DNA from: Candidatus Omnitrophota bacterium
GTDB lineage: Bacteria > Omnitrophota > Gorgyraeia > Tantalellales > Tantalellaceae
Length of the DNA stretch: 64,000 nucleotides
Direction of reading: 5' to 3'
NCBI GenBank assembly: GCA_041667545.1
Contig: JBAYES010000003.1
Coordinates: 2,467 to 66,466 of the forward strand
Shown here: positions 36,688-59,400 of the stretch, in pieces
How positions within the stretch are numbered: the first letter of the stretch is position 1
Layout of the letters: each line of letters opens with the position of its first letter
The notes under the pieces: model-generated
Seen by the model: only the letters and a program-made list of their open reading frames with translations
What the model was told of the DNA's origin: nothing
Database searches by the model: none
Program-made: the position numbers and the translations under genes

Positions 36688-37737
36688 ATGGCCGAATATA
36701 AGAAACAACATTATGTCCCAAGGTGCTACTTGAGATTTTTTTCAAATGACCAAACAAATAAATTAATCAATTTATACAACATAAAGAACAATCGCTGTAT
36801 TAACAACGCTCCCCTAAATGACCAATGCTATGAAAAATACTATTATGGCAAAAACCCAGAACAGGAAAAAAGGTTGTCAAAAATTGAAAGCGCGGCTACA
36901 TCTGCAATAGAAAACATCCTTAAAAATGGACGCTTGCCGAAAGTAAACAGTGAACAACATCTCGCATTGATTCTTTTTATTTTATTACAAACAGCCCGAA
37001 CCCCCTCTGCGGAATCGGATTCCATTTGTTCGTTTACTTCTCTCATAAAAGAACTGCTTATTTACGGAAATCCACAACATAAAAAGGCGATTAAAGAAGC
37101 AACAATAAGAATGTCAAACATGCCGTCAATAAATGTTGCTTCCGCCATCAGATCAATGTTCTTATTGTTTGATTTAAAATACAAACTCTTTAGAAACCGT
37201 TCCCATGAAGGTTTTATAACTTCAGACCATCCCGCTGTAAAATATAATTTTTTATACGAAAAGAGGAAAAACCATTTAACAAAAACAGGCTTTGCTACTC
37301 GTGGTCTTCAAATATTCATACCCATTTCTTCTCGATACTGCTTGATGTTTTATGATGGCACTTCTTATAAATTTGGTTTTCTGCGGCAAGATACTATAGA
37401 TGTAACAAAGCCGGAAACCGTAGACTCAATAAATTGTTTGCAACTGATAAATCGACCAAAAAATATTTATTTTGACAACATGGTTTCGTCGTCTTATGTT
37501 CAAAATATAGTTTCATCTAATCAAGGGTTGTTGGCTGACAGCAAATTTACTCTTAAAAAACACCCACAAGGTTTCTATCTTCATGAACAAACCAAAGATT
37601 TTAATCTTAAAATCCCTACCATCAGGATTATTCCCAATGCGCGTAAAGCAATAAAGACGTCTGATATACGTAACCCAGAATTATTACGACTCAATAATAT
37701 GCTTTTTGATAACGTTGACAAGCAAAACAAAAAATAG
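36688..37737 (+). CDS. DUF4238-family protein (anti-phage Rst_DUF4238-like); opposite-strand moron inserted between terminase and portal genes
   Basis: N-terminal signature KKQHYVPRCYLRFF. Gene is visibly AT-rich relative to flanking phage genes. Has its own TATAAT (36626-36631) and GAGGA RBS. It is the only plus-strand gene in the late operon. Confidence 0.6.
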   Translation: MAEYKKQHYVPRCYLRFFSNDQTNKLINLYNIKNNRCINNAPLNDQCYEKYYYGKNPEQEKRLSKIESAATSAIENILKNGRLPKVNSEQHLALILFILLQTARTPSAESDSICSFTSLIKELLIYGNPQHKKAIKEATIRMSNMPSINVASAIRSMFLLFDLKYKLFRNRSHEGFITSDHPAVKYNFLYEKRKNHLTKTGFATRGLQIFIPISSRYCLMFYDGTSYKFGFLRQDTIDVTKPETVDSINCLQLINRPKNIYFDNMVSSSYVQNIVSSNQGLLADSKFTLKKHPQGFYLHEQTKDFNLKIPTIRIIPNARKAIKTSDIRNPELLRLNNMLFDNVDKQNKK

Positions 37738-40413: not shown

Positions 40414-41710
40414 TACTTTCCCTTATAGCTTTTTTGCCTGTAAATTCCTCCCAGCGTTTCACCGCCACATCACAGAAGACCGGCTCGATCTCCATGGCGA
40501 AAACCCTCCGGTTCAGCCTCTCCCCCGCGATAATTTGCGATCCCGAACCGGAAAACGGTTCATAACAAACATCCCCGGGCACAGTATGAACCCGCATAGG
40601 TATGGCAAAAACCTCGGTCGGCTTTACGGTCGGATGATCAAGTCCCGGATTGCGTTTCTTCCCTTCCCAGTCCAGTTCCCATACGTCGGTATGATATTCC
40701 GGCGTTTCGGGATCTCCCGTTCTTAAAAATCCAACCGTCCATACAGTTCCGATCGCCTTATTTTTTGGCTTATAATCCGGCTTATTCCCTTTCACCCACA
40801 TCAAAAGACACGGCTCATGCCGCCACGAATAAAACGAATAAGTCAAAATGACGCATGGTTTGACCCAGACAATCTCCTGATGAATCAGAATCCCGATCTC
40901 CTTGCAAAGGCCCTCGATATCAGAACGCCGCTTTGAGGCGTGCCACATATAAAGTGCGGTCTTTTCTTTGATGAATCCAAGGCCCACGGTCAAAAACTTG
41001 CGCATGAAATCCACCGCGTCCGGAATGTCGATCTCGTGATAGACGTTCGACCAGTCCCGGCCGCCGTTAGGCCTGTCGGCTCCGGTATAGTCTACGCAAT
41101 ACGGCGGATCCGTGGCGAACAAACTTGCTTTGTGGCCGTCCATAAGCCGTGCGACATCAGTCTCGCTGGTAGAATCCCCGCACAAAAGCCGGTGATCGCC
41201 CAAAATCCATAAATCGCCTTTTTGGGTAATAGTTTCTTTTGGCGGCTCCGGGATATCATCCGGAAGGGTCTTTCCGCTTCCCAAATTTTCCACGCCCATA
41301 TCCCCGACACTTTCCCGTAAACTCTGAAGACGCAGATTGAGATAGTCATCCGCCGCCTCTTTTCGCAACTTTTCCAAAAGCGGGATAAGCGCGGCCGTCC
41401 ACTGTCCGGCGATCTCGCTATTATTAAGCGTCACGTTCATCGCCTGCTCTTGGATCTCGTCAAGATCGACCATAATAGCCGAAACCGTTTCCACACCGTC
41501 CGATTGCAATACCTTGTACCGCTGATGCCCGGAAACAATCCTCATGTTCCGCTTATTAACGATTAAAAGATCCACATACCCAAACTTCTCCAGACTGTGT
41601 CTGAGACCCGCGTAAGCCTGCTCTGTTATCTCGCGGGGGTTGTACGGTGCTGGACTTAAATCCGCTACCCTGACTTCACTAATTTCCGGTTTAACATTGA
41701 TTTTTGCCAC
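40406..41710 (-). CDS. ParB-like nuclease domain fused to DNA methyltransferase (N6-A/N4-C beta class)
   Basis: ParB/Srx N-terminus (LLIVNKRNMRIVSGHQRYKV). Methyltransferase motifs DPPY (LFATDPPYCVDY) and FSGSGS (YEPFSGSGSQ). Confidence 0.7.
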   Translation of the reverse strand: MAKINVKPEISEVRVADLSPAPYNPREITEQAYAGLRHSLEKFGYVDLLIVNKRNMRIVSGHQRYKVLQSDGVETVSAIMVDLDEIQEQAMNVTLNNSEIAGQWTAALIPLLEKLRKEAADDYLNLRLQSLRESVGDMGVENLGSGKTLPDDIPEPPKETITQKGDLWILGDHRLLCGDSTSETDVARLMDGHKASLFATDPPYCVDYTGADRPNGGRDWSNVYHEIDIPDAVDFMRKFLTVGLGFIKEKTALYMWHASKRRSDIEGLCKEIGILIHQEIVWVKPCVILTYSFYSWRHEPCLLMWVKGNKPDYKPKNKAIGTVWTVGFLRTGDPETPEYHTDVWELDWEGKKRNPGLDHPTVKPTEVFAIPMRVHTVPGDVCYEPFSGSGSQIIAGERLNRRVFAMEIEPVFCDVAVKRWEEFTGKKAIRESNG

Positions 41711-42135
41711 GATTTTCTCCTTTTTTATGTGCCTTCATGTCCATCAAAAAGCCCTTTTTAAATCCTATCTAAACTTGTTTTTGCGGCATCTATTCGCCTA
41801 TTTCCCAATAAAAACGGTCATTTCCGTCATTTTTATGATAAACATTTAAAATCTCAAAAGTGATGGACATGGACATCGTTTTTTAAACCTGTAATCACTG
41901 AAGGCTCGCGCCTCGCCCGACCCTCACCCGACACCCCCTTCCAAGGACCCGTAAACCTTCTTTTAAACACAAACCCCGAGTTATCCACAAATCCACAACC
42001 TCTACTACTAATTTTTGATAGTTATCTCTTGTTATTATCTTTTGTTAGGGTGACACCCTTGTCACTACTTCTGGTGACACCGGTGTCACCACTCCGGTGA
42101 CAGGGCTGTCACCGGTGACATCAGTGTCACTACTT
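41711..42135. repeat. candidate replication origin: four GTGACA-N4-TGTCAC palindromes (42050-42065, 42074-42089, 42097-42112, 42115-42130) plus an AT-rich segment flanked by inverted repeat CATGTCCATC / GATGGACATG (41738-41747 / 41862-41871)
   Basis: Palindromes read directly. They lie in the 3' end of the wHTH gene (encoding a VTGDSPVTGVVTPVSP tail) and continue into an AT-rich intergenic region. Layout parallels lambda ori (iterons plus AT-rich region inside or at the initiator gene). Confidence 0.5.
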
Positions 42136-42479
42136 GATTGTGGATAACTTTTCACCCCGGCGATATTGAGTAATTTATAAATGTTCGGCTTCCCCTTCTT
42201 TCGTTCTATCGCAATAACCTTCAAAAGCTCCAATCGTTTAACCGCGCGCATAATTGTCCGTCTGGATACTCCGCAATGATATGCCAGCGTAGTAACAGAC
42301 GGAAAACAGTCTTGCGCCTTATAATTAGCGTAATAACAAAGCCATGAATAAACAGCAACGCCCATGGTACCGGCGCCTTCCGAGATAAGCCTTAATGCCG
42401 CCTTATCTATCCAAAGGAATTTGCCGTCGCGCAGATCCCTGATGTCGAACTTTTCGTTTCCCATGGAAAACCTTTTCAA
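42045..42479 (-). CDS. winged-helix DNA-binding protein, candidate replication initiator (O-like N-terminal domain)
   Basis: Segment FPSVTTLAYHCGVSRRTIMRAVKRLELLKVI; iterons lie in its 3' end. Confidence 0.45.
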   Translation of the reverse strand: MKRFSMGNEKFDIRDLRDGKFLWIDKAALRLISEGAGTMGVAVYSWLCYYANYKAQDCFPSVTTLAYHCGVSRRTIMRAVKRLELLKVIAIERKKGKPNIYKLLNIAGVKSYPQSSSDTDVTGDSPVTGVVTPVSPEVVTRVSP

Positions 42480-42724
42480 TATGAAATAACCTCATACCAA
42501 GCCATGTTGCCTTTGAGGTTCCGCCGGATGCATTCTTCTTTGTCGATCTTCCTCACGATGCCTTGCAAAACAAAATCCCTGATCGTCCTCTCGGCGCGCA
42601 AATAATAATTATTGGTGCCGAAAGATATGACCTCGGCCTTTGAAAAGGTCTTGGTTTGCCTGCACCAGCGTAATAGCCGTTCTTCTTTTGATAAAAATTT
42701 ATCTGTCTGCTCAATCATTTTCAC
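42476..42724 (-). CDS. hypothetical protein
   Basis: ORF only. Confidence 0.3.
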   Translation of the reverse strand: MKMIEQTDKFLSKEERLLRWCRQTKTFSKAEVISFGTNNYYLRAERTIRDFVLQGIVRKIDKEECIRRNLKGNMAWYEVISY

Positions 42725-42736
42725 CTCCTCGTCAAT

Positions 42737-43054
42737 TCATCTGGCCCAGCTGATCCAGCCCCACAAAGCCAAGAAAAAGTACACAACAAACAGAAATGAC
42801 TGAGCGTATAAACGTTTCCGGAAATCGATCACTGCCCATGAGGCGTTCGTAAACATCCATACCAGAAACCCGGCCGGATCTTTATTCACGTTTAACACAA
42901 CCCCAAAAATAGACAGGCCCGCGAGCATCCACATCACCAGCTCTTTGAACTCTTTCGCATCCTTGCCGAACGGCCGGTTGGCTTCGATGAGCCTGCGCCG
43001 GTTGTACCAGCTCAACTTTCTGTATACGCTCTTCCATCCCTTATTAACTTTCAT
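42737..43054 (-). CDS. small membrane protein (3 TM), start assumed at MKVNKG
   Basis: Hydrophobic segments. The longer ORF (to 43174) overlaps the upstream gene by 130 nt. Confidence 0.3.
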   Translation of the reverse strand: MKVNKGWKSVYRKLSWYNRRRLIEANRPFGKDAKEFKELVMWMLAGLSIFGVVLNVNKDPAGFLVWMFTNASWAVIDFRKRLYAQSFLFVVYFFLALWGWISWAR

Positions 43055-43334
43055 CGGGCCTTCCCTCCTTCCTCTTGGGTACTCTTTCAACGATAAATAA
43101 TTCTTCGCCGATTTCTTCGGTAGCGCATTCGGTAAACACGCTCGCAAGAAGCGCTCCCACATCGTCGGTAACATGAATGATCACGCGGTGGCCGGACATA
43201 AGAAACGAACCGTCCATCTTTACCCGGGCTTTTCCGAAAACACCGCGCGCCGCTCGCACAGCCGATTCCATCTGTTCCTGAATCAGCTGTTTATCGATCC
43301 TTTCATCAAATTCGAACTTATACACGAACTCCAT
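43044..43334 (-). CDS. hypothetical protein
   Basis: ORF only. Confidence 0.3.
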   Translation of the reverse strand: MEFVYKFEFDERIDKQLIQEQMESAVRAARGVFGKARVKMDGSFLMSGHRVIIHVTDDVGALLASVFTECATEEIGEELFIVERVPKRKEGRPDES

Positions 43335-43352
43335 GTAATTCCTCCTCTCTGA

Positions 43353-43886
43353 TCACCTCAGATACTCTTCAAGCCCTACTTTTCTAAATACTTCACGAAT
43401 TCGTTTGATCTCATCCTGAAGGGTAGTCCGCGGGATATTCATTACGTCTCCGACCTTCACCTGACTCATCCCTTCCGACAAATACCGGCATATCTGCTTC
43501 TGCCTGAAAGAAAGGTTGGCCGTTGCTTTCGACATCGCCTCAGGAAGATCCGCCGCCGTTATTTTTATCGTTGTCTGTTCTTCAACCATCAGTATTCTCT
43601 CCTTCGTGCTGATCATTTTTTCGTCATCATCCATCGCGTCAAGCGATTCACTCTCATATGAAACTCTTCGTTTATTCGCGGCTCTTCTGCGTATAAGATC
43701 GGCTATTTTGTTACGTGTGACCCTGTTAAGGAATGTGCGCTCGGATGCCCCTGACTCGGAACGATACTGCTCTTTCATGAAAAACCAATGAATCAAACAT
43801 TCCTGCAAAAGATCTTCAATTCCTTCTTTCCGAAGACTCGCGTAGTCGCGTTGCGCGCCCTTGACAGAACAAAGAATCTCCCGCAA
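43353..43886 (-). CDS. sigma-70 family (ECF-like) sigma factor, candidate late-gene activator
   Basis: Region 2-like LIHWFFMKEQ...FLNRVTRNKIADLIRRR. Region 4 HTH LSFRQKQICRYLSEGMSQVKVGDVMNIPRTTLQDEIKRIR. Confidence 0.6.
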   Translation of the reverse strand: MREILCSVKGAQRDYASLRKEGIEDLLQECLIHWFFMKEQYRSESGASERTFLNRVTRNKIADLIRRRAANKRRVSYESESLDAMDDDEKMISTKERILMVEEQTTIKITAADLPEAMSKATANLSFRQKQICRYLSEGMSQVKVGDVMNIPRTTLQDEIKRIREVFRKVGLEEYLR

Positions 43887-43982
43887 TTCCCACTCCTGAA
43901 ATAATCCGCGATAGTTTTGACTAATTCGGACACCTCTTTTCTTGAAGGCGTCCGAAAAGTTTTTTTATACGTATCCGAATTA

Positions 43983-44195
43983 TTAATATCTTTTCCTTGT
44001 AAGCGGTTTGCATCCCGATAATTCATCTGGCGTCGGCTCTCTTTTTAATATTCCTGTTAGCACCGCTTTCACGGCCTCAAAGATTCTTTGATTCTGTTTC
44101 CTCCGCTCCTCGCCTTCTAAAGGCTTGTCCGGATAAACAAGAACGAATCCTTTTTTGAACCGCTTTCCTAAGTTTGAATTTTGCCGGTCGCCCAT
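43983..44195 (-). CDS. hypothetical protein
   Basis: ORF only. Confidence 0.3.
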   Translation of the reverse strand: MGDRQNSNLGKRFKKGFVLVYPDKPLEGEERRKQNQRIFEAVKAVLTGILKREPTPDELSGCKPLTRKRY

Positions 44196-44214
44196 AATGC
44201 TCCTCTATTAGCTA

Positions 44215-44298
44215 CATACGCAGACTTTCCGAAACCTGCCGGAAAAAAGTTTTAAATTGAAAATATTTCCGTCACCCTGCCGGAAATCTGCGTATATA
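44215..44298. repeat. inverted repeat ACATACGCAGACTTTCCG ... CGGAAATCTGCGTATAT with internal direct repeat CCTGCCGGAAA x2; arms resemble the TACATACAGATTTTCC iteron family at 1454-2228
   Basis: Read directly from the sequence. Lies about 60 nt upstream of the conserved recombinase promoter motif. Confidence 0.6.
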
Positions 44299-44422
44299 GA
44301 TAGAAAGCAAGCATCTGTGATCCCCGACCTTAAGCACCCTAAGCCCTTGTTATAGCTTGACTTGGGATGCCTTCTATTATAGGGTTGGGTCGCATTGCGA
44401 AAAACGAATTCGAAAGGATGTT

Positions 44423-46150
<1,728 letters not shown>

Positions 46151-46165
46151 GCATTTCTAAGTTAC

Positions 46166-47320
46166 TTAATCTGAAGGACTTACGTGTAACAACTGTTTCT
46201 CTAACAATTCGATAGAACCCTGTGGTGCTTGTTTGGTGCTTATAATCGTCTCCATCATACTCCCCAAGGTGTCTACGGACTTAGCTTTATGCCCTTGGGA
46301 TAGATGGGAATACCTCATTGTCATCTTTATGTCCTTATGCCCCATCAGTTCCTTTACAGTCATAAGGTCTACCCCGTTCATCACAAGGTGACTTGCGAAG
46401 GTATGTCGTAGGTCATGCCAACGACAATGTGTGATTTTAGCACATCTTATCGCTTTTGAGAAGATTTTATCTACATTTTTAGGGAAGACTATTTCTGTAT
46501 CGTAATGTTCTCGTAAGTTAATAAGTTCCCTCTTTACTACTGCGTTCATAGGACACATTTTAGGCTCATTGTTTTTTGTCTTATGAACATATATGATGTT
46601 GTTCCTAAGGTCTATATCAGACCACTTCAGCCGCATCATCTCACCTCGTCTCATACCAGTGTTAAGTGCCGTAAGTACTGCTGCCTTGAGGTATGGGTCA
46701 CATACTTGTAATAACCGTGCTATTTCCTCTCTCTCCAAGTAACGGACTTTAACATTGTTCTCTCTAAGATGTTTTATAGTATCAAGAGGGTTCTTTTCAG
46801 CATAACCCCATTCGATAGCTTTTTTAAAGGCGGTCTTCATTATAGTGAGATATCGGTTCACCGTGGATGGTTCAATGCCTTCCTGAAGTTTGTGCTTCTT
46901 AAAATCTTCTATATCATAAGGTTTGATTTCATCAAGGTATTTACCCCTGCCTAGTACATCCGCGGCTGATGTAAGCCTTTGTACATCGTCTTTCCAAGAG
47001 GATTTGTTGGGTTTGGAGTATGTTTCGAGGAATAGGGTTATAAAGTCTATGAGTTTAATGCGTTTTACTTTGCTTTTATCGAGGAATTTCCCTTCGGCTA
47101 TTTCTGTTTTCCGTTTGGCAAGTACTGTTTCAGCGAGTTTCTTGTTGGGTCCTATAGTTTCCCGTGTCTGTCTACCATCCACATAGTAAGATATGCACCA
47201 AATACCCTTTCTATCTTTTCTTTGGTAGACTCCTTTCATTGTTCCCTCCCTTACCCTGACGCCAAAGCCTCCAACACCATAACAGTAAACTTCCAATAGA
47301 CCTGTCTTCTTCTCTGGCAT
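46166..47320 (-). CDS. tyrosine recombinase / phage integrase
   Basis: C-terminal catalytic region contains ...RWHDLRHTFASHLVMNGVDLMTVKELMGHKDIKMTMRYSHL (R...HxxR...Y). Has an N-terminal SAM-like domain. Confidence 0.85.
   Translation of the reverse strand: MPEKKTGLLEVYCYGVGGFGVRVREGTMKGVYQRKDRKGIWCISYYVDGRQTRETIGPNKKLAETVLAKRKTEIAEGKFLDKSKVKRIKLIDFITLFLETYSKPNKSSWKDDVQRLTSAADVLGRGKYLDEIKPYDIEDFKKHKLQEGIEPSTVNRYLTIMKTAFKKAIEWGYAEKNPLDTIKHLRENNVKVRYLEREEIARLLQVCDPYLKAAVLTALNTGMRRGEMMRLKWSDIDLRNNIIYVHKTKNNEPKMCPMNAVVKRELINLREHYDTEIVFPKNVDKIFSKAIRCAKITHCRWHDLRHTFASHLVMNGVDLMTVKELMGHKDIKMTMRYSHLSQGHKAKSVDTLGSMMETIISTKQAPQGSIELLEKQLLHVSPSD
46224..46248. repeat. 25-bp direct repeat GGTGCTTgTTTGGTGCTTAtAATcg inside the int 3' coding end; partner at 55886-55910
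   Basis: Left copy is ggtgcttgtttggtgcttataatcg; right copy is ggtgcttatttggtgcttagaatac. Confidence 0.6.
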
Positions 47321-49024: not shown

Positions 49025-50062
49025 TCACTTCTGTTCACTTTCCATCTCAAATAGATGAACAGAACCATCGTTTAACTGTTCAACAACGTCCTGAACAGTT
49101 GAGTCCTTTATTCCCCATACTGCTGCCTTGCCGTTCTTCCCTTTTTTCTCAAAGATGGTGGTGTTTGCGAGTAGGATTCGTTTTACCTTCTCTTTACTCA
49201 TCTTTGTGTTAGCAACAAGCTCCTTCACTGTTTTATCCCCCGAGTCCAAACTTGCTCTGATACTTTCAATACCCACATCACCTTTATCACCATCGAGCAA
49301 CTCAATCCCTACAATTGCTTTTCCCGATTTGATTGAACGATAGAAGATATCTTGACGGTCTTGATACTTGTAGAAGCACCTAATATGAACGGCATCCTTC
49401 TTTTTGTTAAATTCAAGCCCTAGAAGAAAATCCCAAGCCGCATCTAAATCAGCCGACCCACTAAGCCAAGTTGCAGAATTTTCCTTGTTCCGACCTTCAT
49501 TTTTGACACAATGATGAATTATCACCATAGTTATGTCATTTTCCCGCTGGATACGTTTCAACCCGTCAATAACTGGTCCTGTGGCGGAATTACTGTTAAT
49601 ATCCCTCCCCCCGACAATTCGTAGTAGGGGGTCGATAAACACTATCAGGGGCATTTCTTTCGGGTCCATATCCAAGATTTGTTTCACGTCCGCCTCAAGT
49701 CGAGAGATGTCTTCTGGGAATCTCATGGATTTTGCACTACTTAAAAGTAAACCTCTCCCCAATTCCCCTCCCGATAAATTCAACAACCCTTCTGCAACCT
49801 TATAATCCATTTCATCGAGGTTAATCATCAAAACCTTAGCTCGTTTAGCAGCATATCTACCAAGAACTTTTCCACCGTTTATTACCTTCACCCCAATCAC
49901 CCTACTGAGTAAACTCTTGCCACCGTGAGGAGAACTGTTCCCTTTTGGGGGACCTGCAATGAACCCAAAACCTTTTTGCAATAAATCTTCAATCACCCAT
50001 TCCTCTTCTCTCTTCTCAATATCATTTGCATCACGAAACCCGAATCCTTTTATTTTTTCCAT
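49025..50062 (-). CDS. RecA-fold ATPase, AAA_25/RepA-DnaB-like (island replication/primase-associated helicase loader)
   Basis: Walker A-like GFIAGPPKGNSSPHGGKSLL. Walker B-like LMINLDE / VIIHH. Confidence 0.45.
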   Translation of the reverse strand: MEKIKGFGFRDANDIEKREEEWVIEDLLQKGFGFIAGPPKGNSSPHGGKSLLSRVIGVKVINGGKVLGRYAAKRAKVLMINLDEMDYKVAEGLLNLSGGELGRGLLLSSAKSMRFPEDISRLEADVKQILDMDPKEMPLIVFIDPLLRIVGGRDINSNSATGPVIDGLKRIQRENDITMVIIHHCVKNEGRNKENSATWLSGSADLDAAWDFLLGLEFNKKKDAVHIRCFYKYQDRQDIFYRSIKSGKAIVGIELLDGDKGDVGIESIRASLDSGDKTVKELVANTKMSKEKVKRILLANTTIFEKKGKNGKAAVWGIKDSTVQDVVEQLNDGSVHLFEMESEQK

Positions 50063-50381: not shown

Positions 50382-51017
50382 CTATTCCTTAGTTATTGCT
50401 TGAACCCACTGCTCTACTAAAACAGGCATTGTAATTTTACCGTCTTTAGCTCGGGAAAGATTCTTCTTTAAATACTCTACCCCACTCTCCTCAAATTTTT
50501 TCTTGTAAGAAGCGTTCAAATTCATTAAAGACAATATCGCAGCTTGTTCTAAATCAAATGAACTTCTATCTCTTCCTCCCTGAGAATAAACTTTATAAAA
50601 TGCATTGTAGGTTTGCTTTACCCAAGCCGTAAAAAGATTGAAGTGCTGCTGCCCGTACATCTGCTGAAATTTTGGCAGTTTAAACTTATCTCCTAATATC
50701 TTAATTTCTTCTAGAGTAAAACCAAGATAATTCTGCAAGAAATAATAAACCGCTAAATCTTTTAAAATGGTTTTGGGATAATATTTACATTTATCATAGG
50801 GAATACGTTCTGGAGGTGGTAACAATCCTAACTTCCGATAATAGTTAAGAGTTCTCCACGTGAGAGAAAGTCCATATTTCTTGCCCTGTTCAACAAAATC
50901 AGTAAGCGGCAGTAGTATTGTGTCGGGATATGTTTCCTCTTGCGACTTGATTTTCATATTCATCTCCTTTAAATATTCACTCAACGTATAGTGTAAGTGT
51001 ATCATAAAAACCAACAC
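50382..51017 (-). CDS. MerR-like HTH protein (hypothetical regulator)
   Basis: Segment LSLTWRTLNYYRKLGLLPPPER. Confidence 0.35.
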   Translation of the reverse strand: MLVFMIHLHYTLSEYLKEMNMKIKSQEETYPDTILLPLTDFVEQGKKYGLSLTWRTLNYYRKLGLLPPPERIPYDKCKYYPKTILKDLAVYYFLQNYLGFTLEEIKILGDKFKLPKFQQMYGQQHFNLFTAWVKQTYNAFYKVYSQGGRDRSSFDLEQAAILSLMNLNASYKKKFEESGVEYLKKNLSRAKDGKITMPVLVEQWVQAITKE

Positions 51018-56037: not shown

Positions 56038-56078
56038 TTAGCAAACCGTTGCCTTCAGCCAGCTCAGCCACCTCTCCG
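56038..56078. repeat. 41-bp direct repeat, right copy (displaced partial tRNA-Ser 5' half); candidate att site
   Basis: Identical to 46111-46151; the flanking sequence diverges immediately outside. Confidence 0.8.
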
Positions 56079-56425: not shown

Positions 56426-59400
56426 TTAAAGTGAACGGTCTATCGCTTCCCAGGCGGCGCGTTGATTAGCGATATCCTGCCATTCTGCCAGCTGGATCGT
56501 TATAACGCTCCCGGGAGCGAAAAGACGCTTAATTATGTCCCTGGGGTCCTCTTCCCCGTCCAGCATAGCGGTAAGAAGGTAAAGAAGACCGCGGTAGTTA
56601 TTTTCGTCCTGTTTAGCCTCGGATGAAAGCCTGTCATACTCCAGCATATTGAACCCAAGCCCGAAAAGTGAAACAAGATCGGGGTCTTCTCCCGAGTCAA
56701 TTATCTGGAACACTATTCTCTCATCTTGCAGAGAAACCATCCGGCCGTCTATCTCTTCATATTTGAGAAATTTTTCTGCGCTTTCGGGCACCATTATAAC
56801 GGCGCGGCCGACCCAGTCTTTGTTCTCAGGAAGGTCAAGAGCTGATATACAGCTATCTACAGCCTCTCCTATGACCCGGGGAAGATCATGTTCGGTATAA
56901 AATTCCTTTATGTCCGACCGCGCGAAAAGTTTATACGGGAACTGGCCGAGATTCTTTATTATGCGCTGTATGTGTCCTCTTGCTCCGTTAACTCTCCCCA
57001 CCTGGACTACCTGACTCACAACGTTAAAATGCCCGGTCTTATGGTAATTCGACATCCCTTCCACCATACATCCTGTCCGCAGGGCCATGCGAAATTCAGC
57101 TCGCCTCTCTATCGGCTGCTTCTTGATCTCCGCTTTAATACGAGAAATACCCTCAATGCCGCCGCTCTTTTTTATGCTGTCCAACATTCCCCCAGTAAGG
57201 GCCAGGCGATCGAGCCTCTCCGCTTCAAATAGCGGGAGCAGACCATCCAGAGGCCCTTCGAGTCTCGGGGCGGCCCGGTTCGCAATGTGAGTTTGAAGTC
57301 CGGACGGGTCCATATCATTGAAAACTCCGGGTTCTTCTATACGATATATACCTGTACCCCTCACCGTACTTGTCCCCGGATAAACTATATCGGGCTCTTT
57401 TGCTTTCTCGTCGGATACCAGTATATCTTCAGTAGGCTCCGTAATAAGTATGGCGCCTTCTTCGGCTATGGAAAATATGTTGGAAAGCGCTATAAAGTTC
57501 CTTATCCGAGGTTCCTTTGCCTTTTCTTGAGCATCACGGCCGACTACCCTCGAATAATAAGATGTCAGGTAATACACATTACGGAAAAAGATAAAATCGG
57601 CTGTCCTCCCATAATTTTCAAAAGCGTCTTTCCGCACCTCCGCCATCCCTTCTCTGTCAAGAACATTGACCCTGCACGGTTTTATTGTAAGGCTTTCTAA
57701 TCCGTGCTCTGTTAGAGGAGAAAGGGCTTCTGTGAACTTATGCCCTCTTGCCGCCCCGTCGGATATCGGGATCAGGCTCTGATCCGCCTCCATAGCGTAA
57801 GCGACGACCGACCAGTCCGATCTTTTCTCCCCAGATTTATCGAGTTCTTTAAGAAACATTGCGAGAGTCTCCCTAAGCTCAACAGGCTCCCTGCCTATGC
57901 CAATAAAATGTAGCACTATCCGTTTCTGAAGGTTCGGATCGTTTTTCGTCCTAAGTATGAATTCCCTCAATTCGGATGAGAGTTTCTCTTTCTGGGCGGC
58001 CAATCTCATGTCCACTCCGTGGTCCGGAAGCCCGTACGCGAAGGCCATAGCCCCGGGATTGTAGCTGAGAAGGCGGTCGGCAAGATAAGCATCTTTCGCA
58101 TCTTCCAGGCCCAGATCTCTCAAATGACCTCTAAGCGCGCCTATCTCTTGCGGGGCTCGACCTTTAAGAACGGTTATTTCGATCTCGTCGGGTGAGGTTT
58201 CCGCGGAGCCGGGCGTCAAGTCCGTACTGGGAGAGACTATTTCTGTTTTTTCAGGCTTTCCTTCCGACGCGGGAGGTGCCATTGTTTTGGCTCCGGCAGG
58301 TACGGGCTTATCCGACAAAACGGGATCCTCCGCGGGAGTACCATGATATCTTTCTATTCTTGTATCAGCTCCGAAACCAGTCACATATAGGGGATCGGGG
58401 TCGCCCGCCATTACCCCGATAGGATTGACAAACTGATCTGTCCCCGTACGGGTCTCCTTTCCAGCTATAAAAGCTTCATTTACAGGTTCACCTTCTCTGT
58501 CCTGGGCATTTATCAGCTTAAGGGGATTATCCAATATCTTTCTCAAAAAGTCAGTTTCGCGCTTGTCCGTTACGTTAAGCGCTACAAATTTCTTGCCGTC
58601 CTCTCTTGCCCATTTAGCGAACAGGTTGTACGTGTTCTCTATTATCCGCCGGTGTTTCTCCCTGTCTTTGTCTTTGGCGGACAGAGAGACGATCTGCCTG
58701 TCTATGGCTTTAAACTTAGTATCCTGCTGAGAAGAAGAAAGCGCGATAGGATTCGCCCAGCCTATGCGTTCTTCTTCGATATATATGTCGTATTTCCCCG
58801 TCCTTTCCGGGTCGGCCTTCATAGTTATGGTCCCGTACCGGTTTTGCGGCGACAGATCCCTGAAAGTTACGCTTACAAATTTGTCATTATCGTGGATATA
58901 TCTCTCGATAAGATTGCCGCTTTTATCAACGACAAAATGCCTGTGACCATGCTTATCCCTTATGGTCAAGTGCCCCGGGAACTCAATACCGGGCCGGTTG
59001 ACCGAGATCTCAAGTTCCGTTTTCTCTATCCGGGAAAGCCTTTTCAGAATCCTTTCACTCACTTTGCCATCCGTTGTGAACAATCGTTTAAGATAGAACT
59101 TCACGATACTTTCTTTAATGCCGGGGAATATCTCTGTCAGTGAGGCGGGATTTAGGGTTTCTCGAAGGACAGCGAATGTCCCGTAAGCGAAGACCGCGGC
59201 GGTAATGAACATAATAACCGCTCCGGCCAGCATAAGCCCCATACCTCCACTTGCGCCCATCTCCGCTATGGCCTTCCCGGTTAAAAATAACGCCGGCCCG
59301 GCGGCGGAATAGAGTACGGGAACCCGCATCGTCTGCTCTTCGCTAACGACCGGCCTTACCAGAGCGGGTTCGGAAATTATCTTTTTGAGCGTACCCTCTT

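Follow-up and report, generated by a model that had tools for sequence, protein, structure and literature searches.

A probable lambda-type replication origin at the 3' end of a short initiator-like gene in an Omnitrophota prophage

A stretch of Candidatus Omnitrophota DNA (64,000 nucleotides of contig JBAYES010000003.1, analysed as a whole and termed the window) contains four exact palindromes in the 3' end of a minus-strand gene for a small winged-helix protein, raising the question of what such repeats do within a coding sequence. A sequence-only reading had proposed a replication origin of the type found in phage lambda. We put the probability at about 0.7 that ~170 bp around the palindromes (41979-42149) constitute the vegetative replication origin of a lambda-like Omnitrophota prophage. 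Most likely this is a lambda-O-type origin whose initiator has been reduced to its DNA-binding domain, and hence a recognisable variation on an established design, not a new element. The part of the earlier proposal that placed the sites inside the initiator's own gene has gained comparative evidence, while its origin boundaries and its view of the gene-end placement had to be revised. In gene order, the ~170-bp layout consists of a DnaA-type box, 8 nt, the four palindromes, the stop codon, AT-rich 13-mers and one or more further boxes, with these components:

42045..42464, minus strand: short-form initiator-like gene, 139 amino acids (aa); winged helix-turn-helix (wHTH) at ~15-102, disordered tail at 103-139 corresponding to the translated candidate origin
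42139..42147, minus strand: DnaA box 1, TTATCCACA, 8 nt before the first palindrome in gene order; encodes part of S-Y-P-Q
42050-42130, no strand: palindrome array, GTGACA-N4-TGTCAC four times, 16 bp each; proposed initiator-binding sites
41998..42047, no strand: candidate DNA-unwinding element, AT-rich, with two tandem 13-mers
41981..41989, plus strand: DnaA box 2, TTATCCACA, abutted by the box-like AAATCCACA (7 of 9 positions) at 41989-97

Exact matches to GTGACA-N4-TGTCAC were found at 42050-65, 42074-89, 42097-112 and 42115-130, with starts 24, 23 and 18 nt apart, in agreement with the four 16-bp palindromes at 18-24 bp spacing described previously. Read in the direction of the gene, the array runs from 42115-30 (palindrome 1) through 42097-112 and 42074-89 to 42050-65 (palindrome 4), lying within the final 85 nt of the winged-helix gene and encoding the C-terminal peptide ...SSSDTDVTGDSPVTGVVTPVSPEVVTRVSP that ends at the stop codon. 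Four palindromes with zero mismatches were observed compared to 0.00 expected from shuffled sequences, and a search across the 64 kb for the core GTGAC-N6-GTCAC, allowing up to one mismatch, recovered the same four sites only. The half-site centres of this core are separated by 11 bp, or about one helical turn. The region gave zero blastn matches to cultured phages, and a search of 41000-44500 against Rfam returned a chance microRNA match only.

To place the array in a comparative setting, 103 related loci were gathered from viral contigs, genomes and metagenomes, nearly all of them from Omnitrophota; Ca. Velamenicoccus archaeovorus, whose genome is closed, contributes two of them. Approximately 43 loci encode a short form of 139-148 aa, to which the window copy belongs, and approximately 44 loci (about half of those with a readable gene) encode a long form of ~245-275 aa with an extra C-terminal domain. 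The palindrome offsets (0/18/41/65) are constant in 66 unique relatives. Furthermore, in 87 related loci searched with up to 6 kb of flank per side, all exact core matches fall inside the array.

Within the half-sites, four-fold degenerate third positions show 0-0.37 bits of variation, the lone exception being the last base in the left half of palindrome 4. By comparison, the mean over 17 conserved four-fold sites of the wHTH domain is 1.56 bits (minimum 1.11), and third positions in the N4 spacers range from 0.83 to 1.84 bits. Palindromes 1-2 translate as (S/G)D-x-x-VT and palindromes 3-4 as VT-x-VS, and therefore one DNA motif is read in two frames. Judged by these patterns, it is the DNA and not the peptide that is under selection at the array, consistent with a lambda-type origin, in which the repeats lie under DNA-level selection within the initiator coding sequence. 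The previous suggestion that the DNA repeats constrain the peptide is thus borne out by the related loci.

Selection could instead act on the protein or the RNA, either through a functional V-T/S-P tail or through hairpins that stabilise or terminate the mRNA. In favour of this view, almost every short form has the tail, and a 6-bp hairpin could fold at each palindrome, with one scoring as terminator-like. However, synonymous sites are frozen where the peptide varies, the motif occurs in two frames, and both the tail and the corresponding linker of the long form are predicted to be disordered. In addition, a third form of the gene (JAQURK010000014.1, 6300-6480; protein P0049, 114 aa) has a stop codon before the palindromes and keeps the array, the AT-rich stretch and a DnaA box, all of them non-coding, such that the array persists untranslated. 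Departures from the palindromes comprise 112 broken and 35 G-U-only cases (147 uncompensated) compared to 10 that are compensated. As departures are rarely compensated, the constraint is on sequence and not on hairpin formation, and selection for hairpins or cruciforms was ruled out on this basis. An explanation at the protein or RNA level is thereby largely refuted, and we consider it exceedingly improbable. We propose that translation of the origin yields the repetitive V-T/S-P tail as a disordered by-product.

The stretch that follows palindrome 4 has the character of an unwinding element. Positions 41998-42047 are ~25% GC and contain two tandem 13-mers, TTATCTCTTGTTA (42022-34) and TTATCTTTTGTTA (42035-47), the second of which includes the stop codon. 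This tract is the least stable 40-50 bp duplex of 41650-42250 and falls within the lowest 0.03-0.1% of windows across the 64 kb, providing the easily melted DNA next to the repeats that is typical of lambda-type origins. Among short forms, the non-coding interval from palindrome 4 to box 2 retains 87% pairwise identity, compared to 61% at four-fold sites of these sequences.

The two DnaA-type boxes are the only perfect copies of TTATCCACA in the 64 kb, with one on each side of the array, although the Omnitrophota consensus may differ. The sequence-only reading mentioned neither these boxes, nor the particularly unstable 50 bp between the array and box 2, nor the long form of the gene found in relatives. 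Together they form a perfect 12-nt inverted repeat (41979-90 / 42138-49). The upstream box is kept in 60/66 unique relatives and in 32/32 short forms, at offset -17, or -14 when reversed, relative to palindrome 1. Its orientation flips between clades, so that it encodes SYPQ in one and PVDK in the other, and the third position of the Pro codon CCA within it is invariant in all 37 sequences (37/37). The downstream box, TGTG(G/A/C)ATAA at +139 to +147, is found in 56/66 relatives and 30/32 short forms; short forms have it in non-coding DNA, and in long forms it specifies the L-W-I that opens the C-terminal domain. Both boxes are retained more faithfully by short forms than by long forms. Their conserved position suggests that DnaA boxes are part of the origin, as they are in plasmids that use Rep together with DnaA.

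We take ATG 42464, and not TTG 42479, as the real start of the gene because homologues begin with MGNEK and because an identical 139-aa protein (P0001, 100% identity) is encoded by a metagenome-assembled genome (MAG) of Candidatus Omnitrophota. The 144-aa winged-helix protein predicted earlier is accordingly 139 aa long, and its winged helix was confirmed as Pfam HTH_36 (E 6.8e-14). Against PHROG, the best match is phrog_270 (E 5.6e-13), together with the O-like phrog_391 (1e-8) and phrog_678 (6.5e-8). These matches are confined to the N-terminal ~100 positions of families ~300 residues long that are described as replication initiation, O-like, or DnaD-like helicase loader. In the AlphaFold 2 model, the wHTH (~15-102) has predicted local distance difference test values of 80-95, and the tail (103-139) is below 50 and disordered. 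The model contains a single wHTH, and no Pfam match to Rep_3 was obtained for the protein. Relatives identified by tblastn among phages and plasmids reach at most 41% identity; one is annotated as an O-like replication initiation protein and the others as 'hypothetical' or 'HTH'. A search of the PDB with the family sequence profile found nothing. Across short forms, the ratio of nonsynonymous to synonymous substitution (dN/dS) is 0.046 at a dS of 0.88, which indicates that the short-form protein is under strong purifying selection and functional. Taken together, the Pfam and PHROG matches, and those of the long form to BFVD, assign the wHTH to the initiator families expected at a lambda-type origin.

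In the long form, the palindromes lie in the middle of the gene, in a disordered linker between two domains. The AlphaFold model of this form comprises the wHTH, a disordered linker (103-155) encoded by the palindromes, and a confidently predicted helical domain; it rests on a shallow alignment in the C-terminal domain, for which a protein search with the domain alignment gave 2 matches only. When compared to BFVD, the long-form model yielded 55 matches at E <= 1e-3, aligning with two-domain phage initiators over most of the length of the latter; these include replication initiators and the 'replication protein O' of the lambdoid phage Min27. The C-terminal domain had no match in Pfam, PHROG or the PDB. 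In lambda, the C-terminal domain of O recruits the helicase loader. A mid-gene array ahead of such a loader-recruiting domain is present in the long-form relatives and not in the window, where the gene ends right after palindrome 4.

The relationship between the two forms is revealed by a conserved element farther downstream, which we propose delimits the origin region on its outer side:

41894..41951, no strand: conserved GC-rich element, 58 nt, with the core CGCGCCTCGCCCGACCC at 41907-23

In gene orientation the element reads CGGGTCCTTGGAAGGGGGTGTCGGGTGAGGGTCGGGCGAGGCGCGAGCCTTCAGTGAT, and in 60 unique sequences of both forms it is near-invariant, with the core GGGTCGGGCGAGGCGCG. The majority of short forms have it at +196 to +210 from palindrome 1, and the majority of long forms at +513 to +538. 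Because this offset shifts while the origin core stays in place, the short form corresponds to the long form minus ~320 nt. By comparison with its relatives, then, the window copy is a derived short form that has lost the DNA coding for the C-terminal helical domain and kept the ~170-bp core. The position of the array at the gene end, which had been considered a difference from lambda, is derived by this ~320-nt deletion and does not represent another design.

The gene lies within a lambda-like temperate prophage that is integrated beside tRNA-Ser in the Omnitrophota genome. On the minus strand, small open reading frames (ORFs) and a sigma-like protein are followed by an 82-aa ORF, the initiator-like gene, a fusion of ParB-N with a methyltransferase of the N6/N4 type, TerS and a GpA-type TerL, and then by portal, scaffold, major head protein, tape measure and a gpJ-like fibre. 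The assignment of TerL to the lambda GpA type comes from phrog_15 (E 1e-194), and the gpB-type portal and tail fibre J are likewise lambda-like. The order of integrase, sigma-like gene, small ORFs, initiator-like gene, ParB-methyltransferase, TerS and TerL is shared across relatives. No helicase, loader, primase or polymerase was recognised in the prophage, nor in relatives of either form. The gene that follows the initiator in the window is the ParB-N methyltransferase, and not a P-like or DnaC-like loader gene as in lambda-type arrangements.

A number of observations weigh against an origin at 41979-42149. The number of perfect boxes is not significant, as 13/100 shuffles equal the two observed, and the DnaA argument therefore rests on box position and conservation; the host consensus is also an assumed one and may not be that of Omnitrophota. 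Binding of the palindromes by the 139-aa protein is deduced from adjacency and family membership. Complete initiator function is not assured for the window protein because it has no C-terminal domain, and by tblastn this domain is absent from the window and from 42 short-form loci, which speaks against a split gene with the domain encoded elsewhere. Covariation between the recognition helix and half-site specificity was not demonstrable because the family is too uniform, the single hint coming from the most divergent locus (L092, 3260-3520), in which the helix is VSVRTVRR instead of VSRRTIMR and the repeats are GGACA-N4-TGTCC-like. Neither GC skew nor cumulative skew shows a switch, the monotonic profile being set mainly by gene orientation and uninformative. 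Moreover, the array adjoins the upstream side of the packaging genes, where cos/pac sites and late regulators also occur. Finally, the nearest structures found by Foldseek in the PDB are small dimeric wHTH repressors (ArsR, CodY, MarR and Fur; best E 0.014), with one weak full-length alignment to primosomal DnaB (5wtn). As these neighbours are generic small wHTH repressors at E ~0.01, the fold cannot separate an initiator from a repressor.

The last two points would also suit a transcription regulator, for which the palindromes would serve as operators in autoregulation, as a roadblock where the early operon ends, or in distal control of the late operon. Such a role would be in line with the sub-threshold Pfam matches of the 139-aa protein to GntR- and Crp-type HTH domains and with the location of the site between the early genes, the sigma-like gene included, and the late packaging operon. 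However, no palindrome lies at any promoter; all are in the 3' end or the linker of the gene, and the flanks of the 87 loci contain no sites. The distance to the late operon shifts by ~320 nt between forms, whereas the spacing of array, AT-rich stretch and boxes is fixed. A repressor would leave the flanking DnaA boxes and the conserved meltable spacer unexplained, and the family matches that exceed threshold are to replication initiators. We therefore give a regulatory role little credence.

A different alternative accepts the origin but holds that the short protein is not self-sufficient but an origin-binding module that lacks the domain for helicase recruitment, and that it depends on or competes with a co-resident long-form prophage in a satellite-like or incompatibility relationship. 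Short and long forms have identical half-sites and share the recognition-helix motif SRRTIMR, and both can occur in a single genome: in the closed chromosome of Ca. Velamenicoccus archaeovorus LiM (NZ_CP019384.1), a short copy (L013) and a long copy (L019) lie 48 kb apart, and JAMWCB01 contains one of each (L010 short, L021 long). Prophages of the two forms with common half-sites in the same genome raise the possibility of cross-talk between origins, and the C-terminal domain is absent from the window and the short-form loci. Against such dependence, the large-contig assemblies L011, L012, L014 and L015 gave the short form only, a point weakened by the incompleteness of MAGs. The low dN/dS (0.046) and the retention of the boxes in short forms (32/32 and 30/32) instead fit an autonomous, DnaA-assisted origin. 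Overall, we judge dependence on a long-form helper to be unlikely.

The sequence beyond the unwinding element bears on where the candidate origin ends. The intergenic region of 334 bp is heterogeneous, being AT-rich at 41998-42047, GC-rich at 41894-41951 (53-56% GC in 100-nt windows) and AT-rich again at 41747-41860 (~30% GC). Its description as about 330 bp of AT-rich DNA therefore applies to the two AT-rich parts and fails at the GC-rich block between them. The GC-rich element, which had no match in Rfam, is followed by an A-run and then by the tandem unit GATGTC(C/A)ATGTC(C/A)AT. An inverted repeat reported in this region was recovered and is one base longer than the 10 bp given, with arms CATGTCCATCA (41736-46) and TGATGGACATG (41861-71) that are 114 nt apart:

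41730..41878, no strand: AT-rich stretch bracketed by the inverted repeat, with tandem ATGTCC units TGATGGACATGGACATCG at 41861-78

An inverted ATGTCC pair is situated at 41730-46, just before the ribosome-binding site of the ParB-methyltransferase gene. The upstream tandem unit GATGTC(C/A)ATGTC(C/A)AT is kept in most relatives, and the second ATGTCC arm is restricted to a subset consisting of the window copy, L009, L018 and L019. A sigma70-like match was also detected at 41857-41829 on the minus strand. The assignment of this bracketed stretch to the origin did not hold, as the conserved 58-nt GC-rich element intervenes and the stretch adjoins the ParB-methyltransferase/terminase operon. Positions 41730-41878 are probably a promoter or regulatory region of the late operon and not part of the origin, for which the relevant AT-rich DNA is the 50 bp at 41998-42047.

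The proximity of these elements to the terminase genes invites the view that the palindromes belong to a cos/pac packaging signal for the small terminase subunit, which would lie upstream of terminase as in lambda. Some 340 nt separate the array from the ParB-methyltransferase/TerS/TerL operon downstream of it, lambda-type features are seen in TerL, the portal and tail fibre J, and the conserved GC-rich element is found alongside. Nevertheless, the array resides inside an initiator-family gene, in the linker of long forms as in oriLambda, and neither DnaA boxes nor an unwinding element is a feature of cos/pac. More plausible as cos are the GC-rich element and the downstream ATGTCC repeats, both of which are distinct from the array. 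Contig ends define no terminus: near the GC-rich element they are scattered 34-59 nt past the core, and none falls within the palindromes. We rate a packaging function for the palindromes as very improbable. The GC-rich element itself may serve the GpA-type terminase as cos or act in late regulation, and the downstream block is possibly cos.

With the ~170-bp core delimited in this manner, its design can be compared to known origins. In oriLambda, iterons and an AT-rich tract occupy the central part of O (PMC7466680). The candidate origin resembles it in the N-terminal O-like/HTH_36 wHTH, in the four dyad-symmetric sites within the initiator's own coding sequence and in the immediately adjoining AT-rich tract. 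The long-form relatives with the array in a mid-gene linker extend this likeness, as does the temperate phage itself, with its GpA terminase, gpB-type portal and gpJ-like fibre. The differences are that 16-bp GTGACA-N4-TGTCAC sites take the place of the 19-bp lambda iteron, that perfect DnaA boxes flank the origin, and that a ParB-methyltransferase follows instead of a P-like loader. Additionally, the C-terminal domain is deleted in the window, so that the origin forms the 3' end of the gene and extends beyond the stop codon, and the host belongs to Omnitrophota.

Origins of iteron plasmids bring together Rep, DnaA boxes and an unwinding element, and in P1 arrays of DnaA boxes are found at both ends of the origin (PMC4980987). 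Plasmid origins of this group (P1 oriR, pSC101, F and RK2 oriV) share with the candidate the combination of initiator sites, DnaA boxes and an AT-rich element with 13-mers, as well as a winged-helix initiator that works with DnaA on opening and helicase delivery, which is proposed here. The P1 box arrays are the closest match to the flanking layout. As oriLambda does not use flanking DnaA boxes in this way, the candidate would be a hybrid that also follows the Rep-plus-DnaA scheme known from iteron plasmids. Direct iterons and a two-winged-helix Rep are not found here: the plasmids have direct repeats bound by monomers of a Rep with two winged helices (Rep_3), in contrast to palindromes and a single wHTH. 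Their origins also lie outside the rep coding sequence, and the element described here integrates by means of a serine recombinase and packages like a phage.

Replisome organisers or DnaD-like initiators whose origin lies within their own gene are also encoded by Gram-positive phages, as exemplified by SPP1 G38P/oriL and by the rep genes of lactococcal and streptococcal phages. The PHROG signal for DnaD-like loaders and replication initiation, and the in-gene repeats beside an AT-rich stretch, are common to these systems and the window. Unlike the window, such phages encode a helicase and/or a loader beside the initiator. To our knowledge, their repeats are usually direct and not palindromic, and we know of no description of flanking DnaA boxes.

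From these features, the following course of events can be proposed. Dimers of the 139-aa winged-helix protein would occupy the four GTGAC-N6-GTCAC palindromes in the 3' coding end of their own gene. The resulting nucleoprotein array would strain the neighbouring 50-bp AT-rich stretch with its 13-mers, and host DnaA on both flanking boxes would aid opening and bring the host helicase. Transcription of the early operon would pass through the site, as in lambda. The use of DnaA, the unwinding step and the sufficiency of the short form are each presumed in this scheme.

An extension of this model, which we regard as tentative and on balance doubtful, is that a single winged helix of ~100 residues with no helicase-recruiting domain represents the sole replication function of the phage. 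The short protein could act autonomously, firing the origin by passing the task to host DnaA at the boxes. Alternatively, it could occupy the origin and parasitise or block co-resident long-form relatives that have the same half-sites.

Several further features of the window lie outside the candidate origin. The prophage integrase and the adjacent tRNA are as follows:

44357-46090, plus strand: large serine recombinase of the prophage, abutting tRNA-Ser
46058-46150, minus strand: tRNA-Ser(gct), with its 5' half at 46111-46151

The serine recombinase ORF extends 33 nt into the 3' end of tRNA-Ser. This overlap makes it probable that the attachment site is inside the tRNA and that the 3' end of the tRNA is restored upon integration; attachment at a tRNA is unusual for a serine recombinase. 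The 5' half of the tRNA (46111-46151) has an exact 42-nt copy at 56038-56078, and the two copies enclose an integrative island of ~9.9 kb that encodes a tyrosine integrase (46166-47320), an AAA_25 protein (49025-50062) and a MerR-type protein (50382-51017). As the island is bracketed by the tRNA-half repeats, two different mobile elements flank one tRNA gene. Between the initiator-like gene and the recombinase, the last 60 residues of ORF 42737-43174 pass the Pfam threshold for a nicotinamide mononucleotide transporter (PnuC, E 1.1e-6). This ORF overlaps a 96-aa ORF (43044-43334) and is probably a membrane protein of ~105 aa that starts at an internal ATG, with relatives having a 105-aa ORF at this position. 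Within the otherwise co-directional structural operon, a DUF4238 gene (36688-37737) is inserted on the opposite strand between portal and TerL and looks like a moron-type insertion. Finally, a 2510-aa ORF with no Pfam match spans 56426-63958; a 2026 preprint describes very long proteins as an Omnitrophota trait.

A search of the literature on Omnitrophota prophages or origins found nothing relevant. The ~170-bp core and its 139-aa candidate binder would provide the first origin model for temperate phages of Omnitrophota, a phylum represented almost solely by metagenomic data. The array is also a clear case of dual coding, in which a cis-element sets the tail of a protein, is read in two frames, freezes synonymous sites and persists where it is untranslated. 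The long form, the short form and the form with a stop codon before the palindromes (L026) make up a natural deletion series, which shows that the candidate origin core can outlast the C-terminal half of its initiator. With DnaA boxes at hand, it may be asked which portion of an O-type initiator is still required. If the parasitic variant were true, it would amount to natural interference between prophages at the level of the origin. In practical terms, the conserved core could seed vectors for uncultivated Omnitrophota, or mark prophage induction in read depth.

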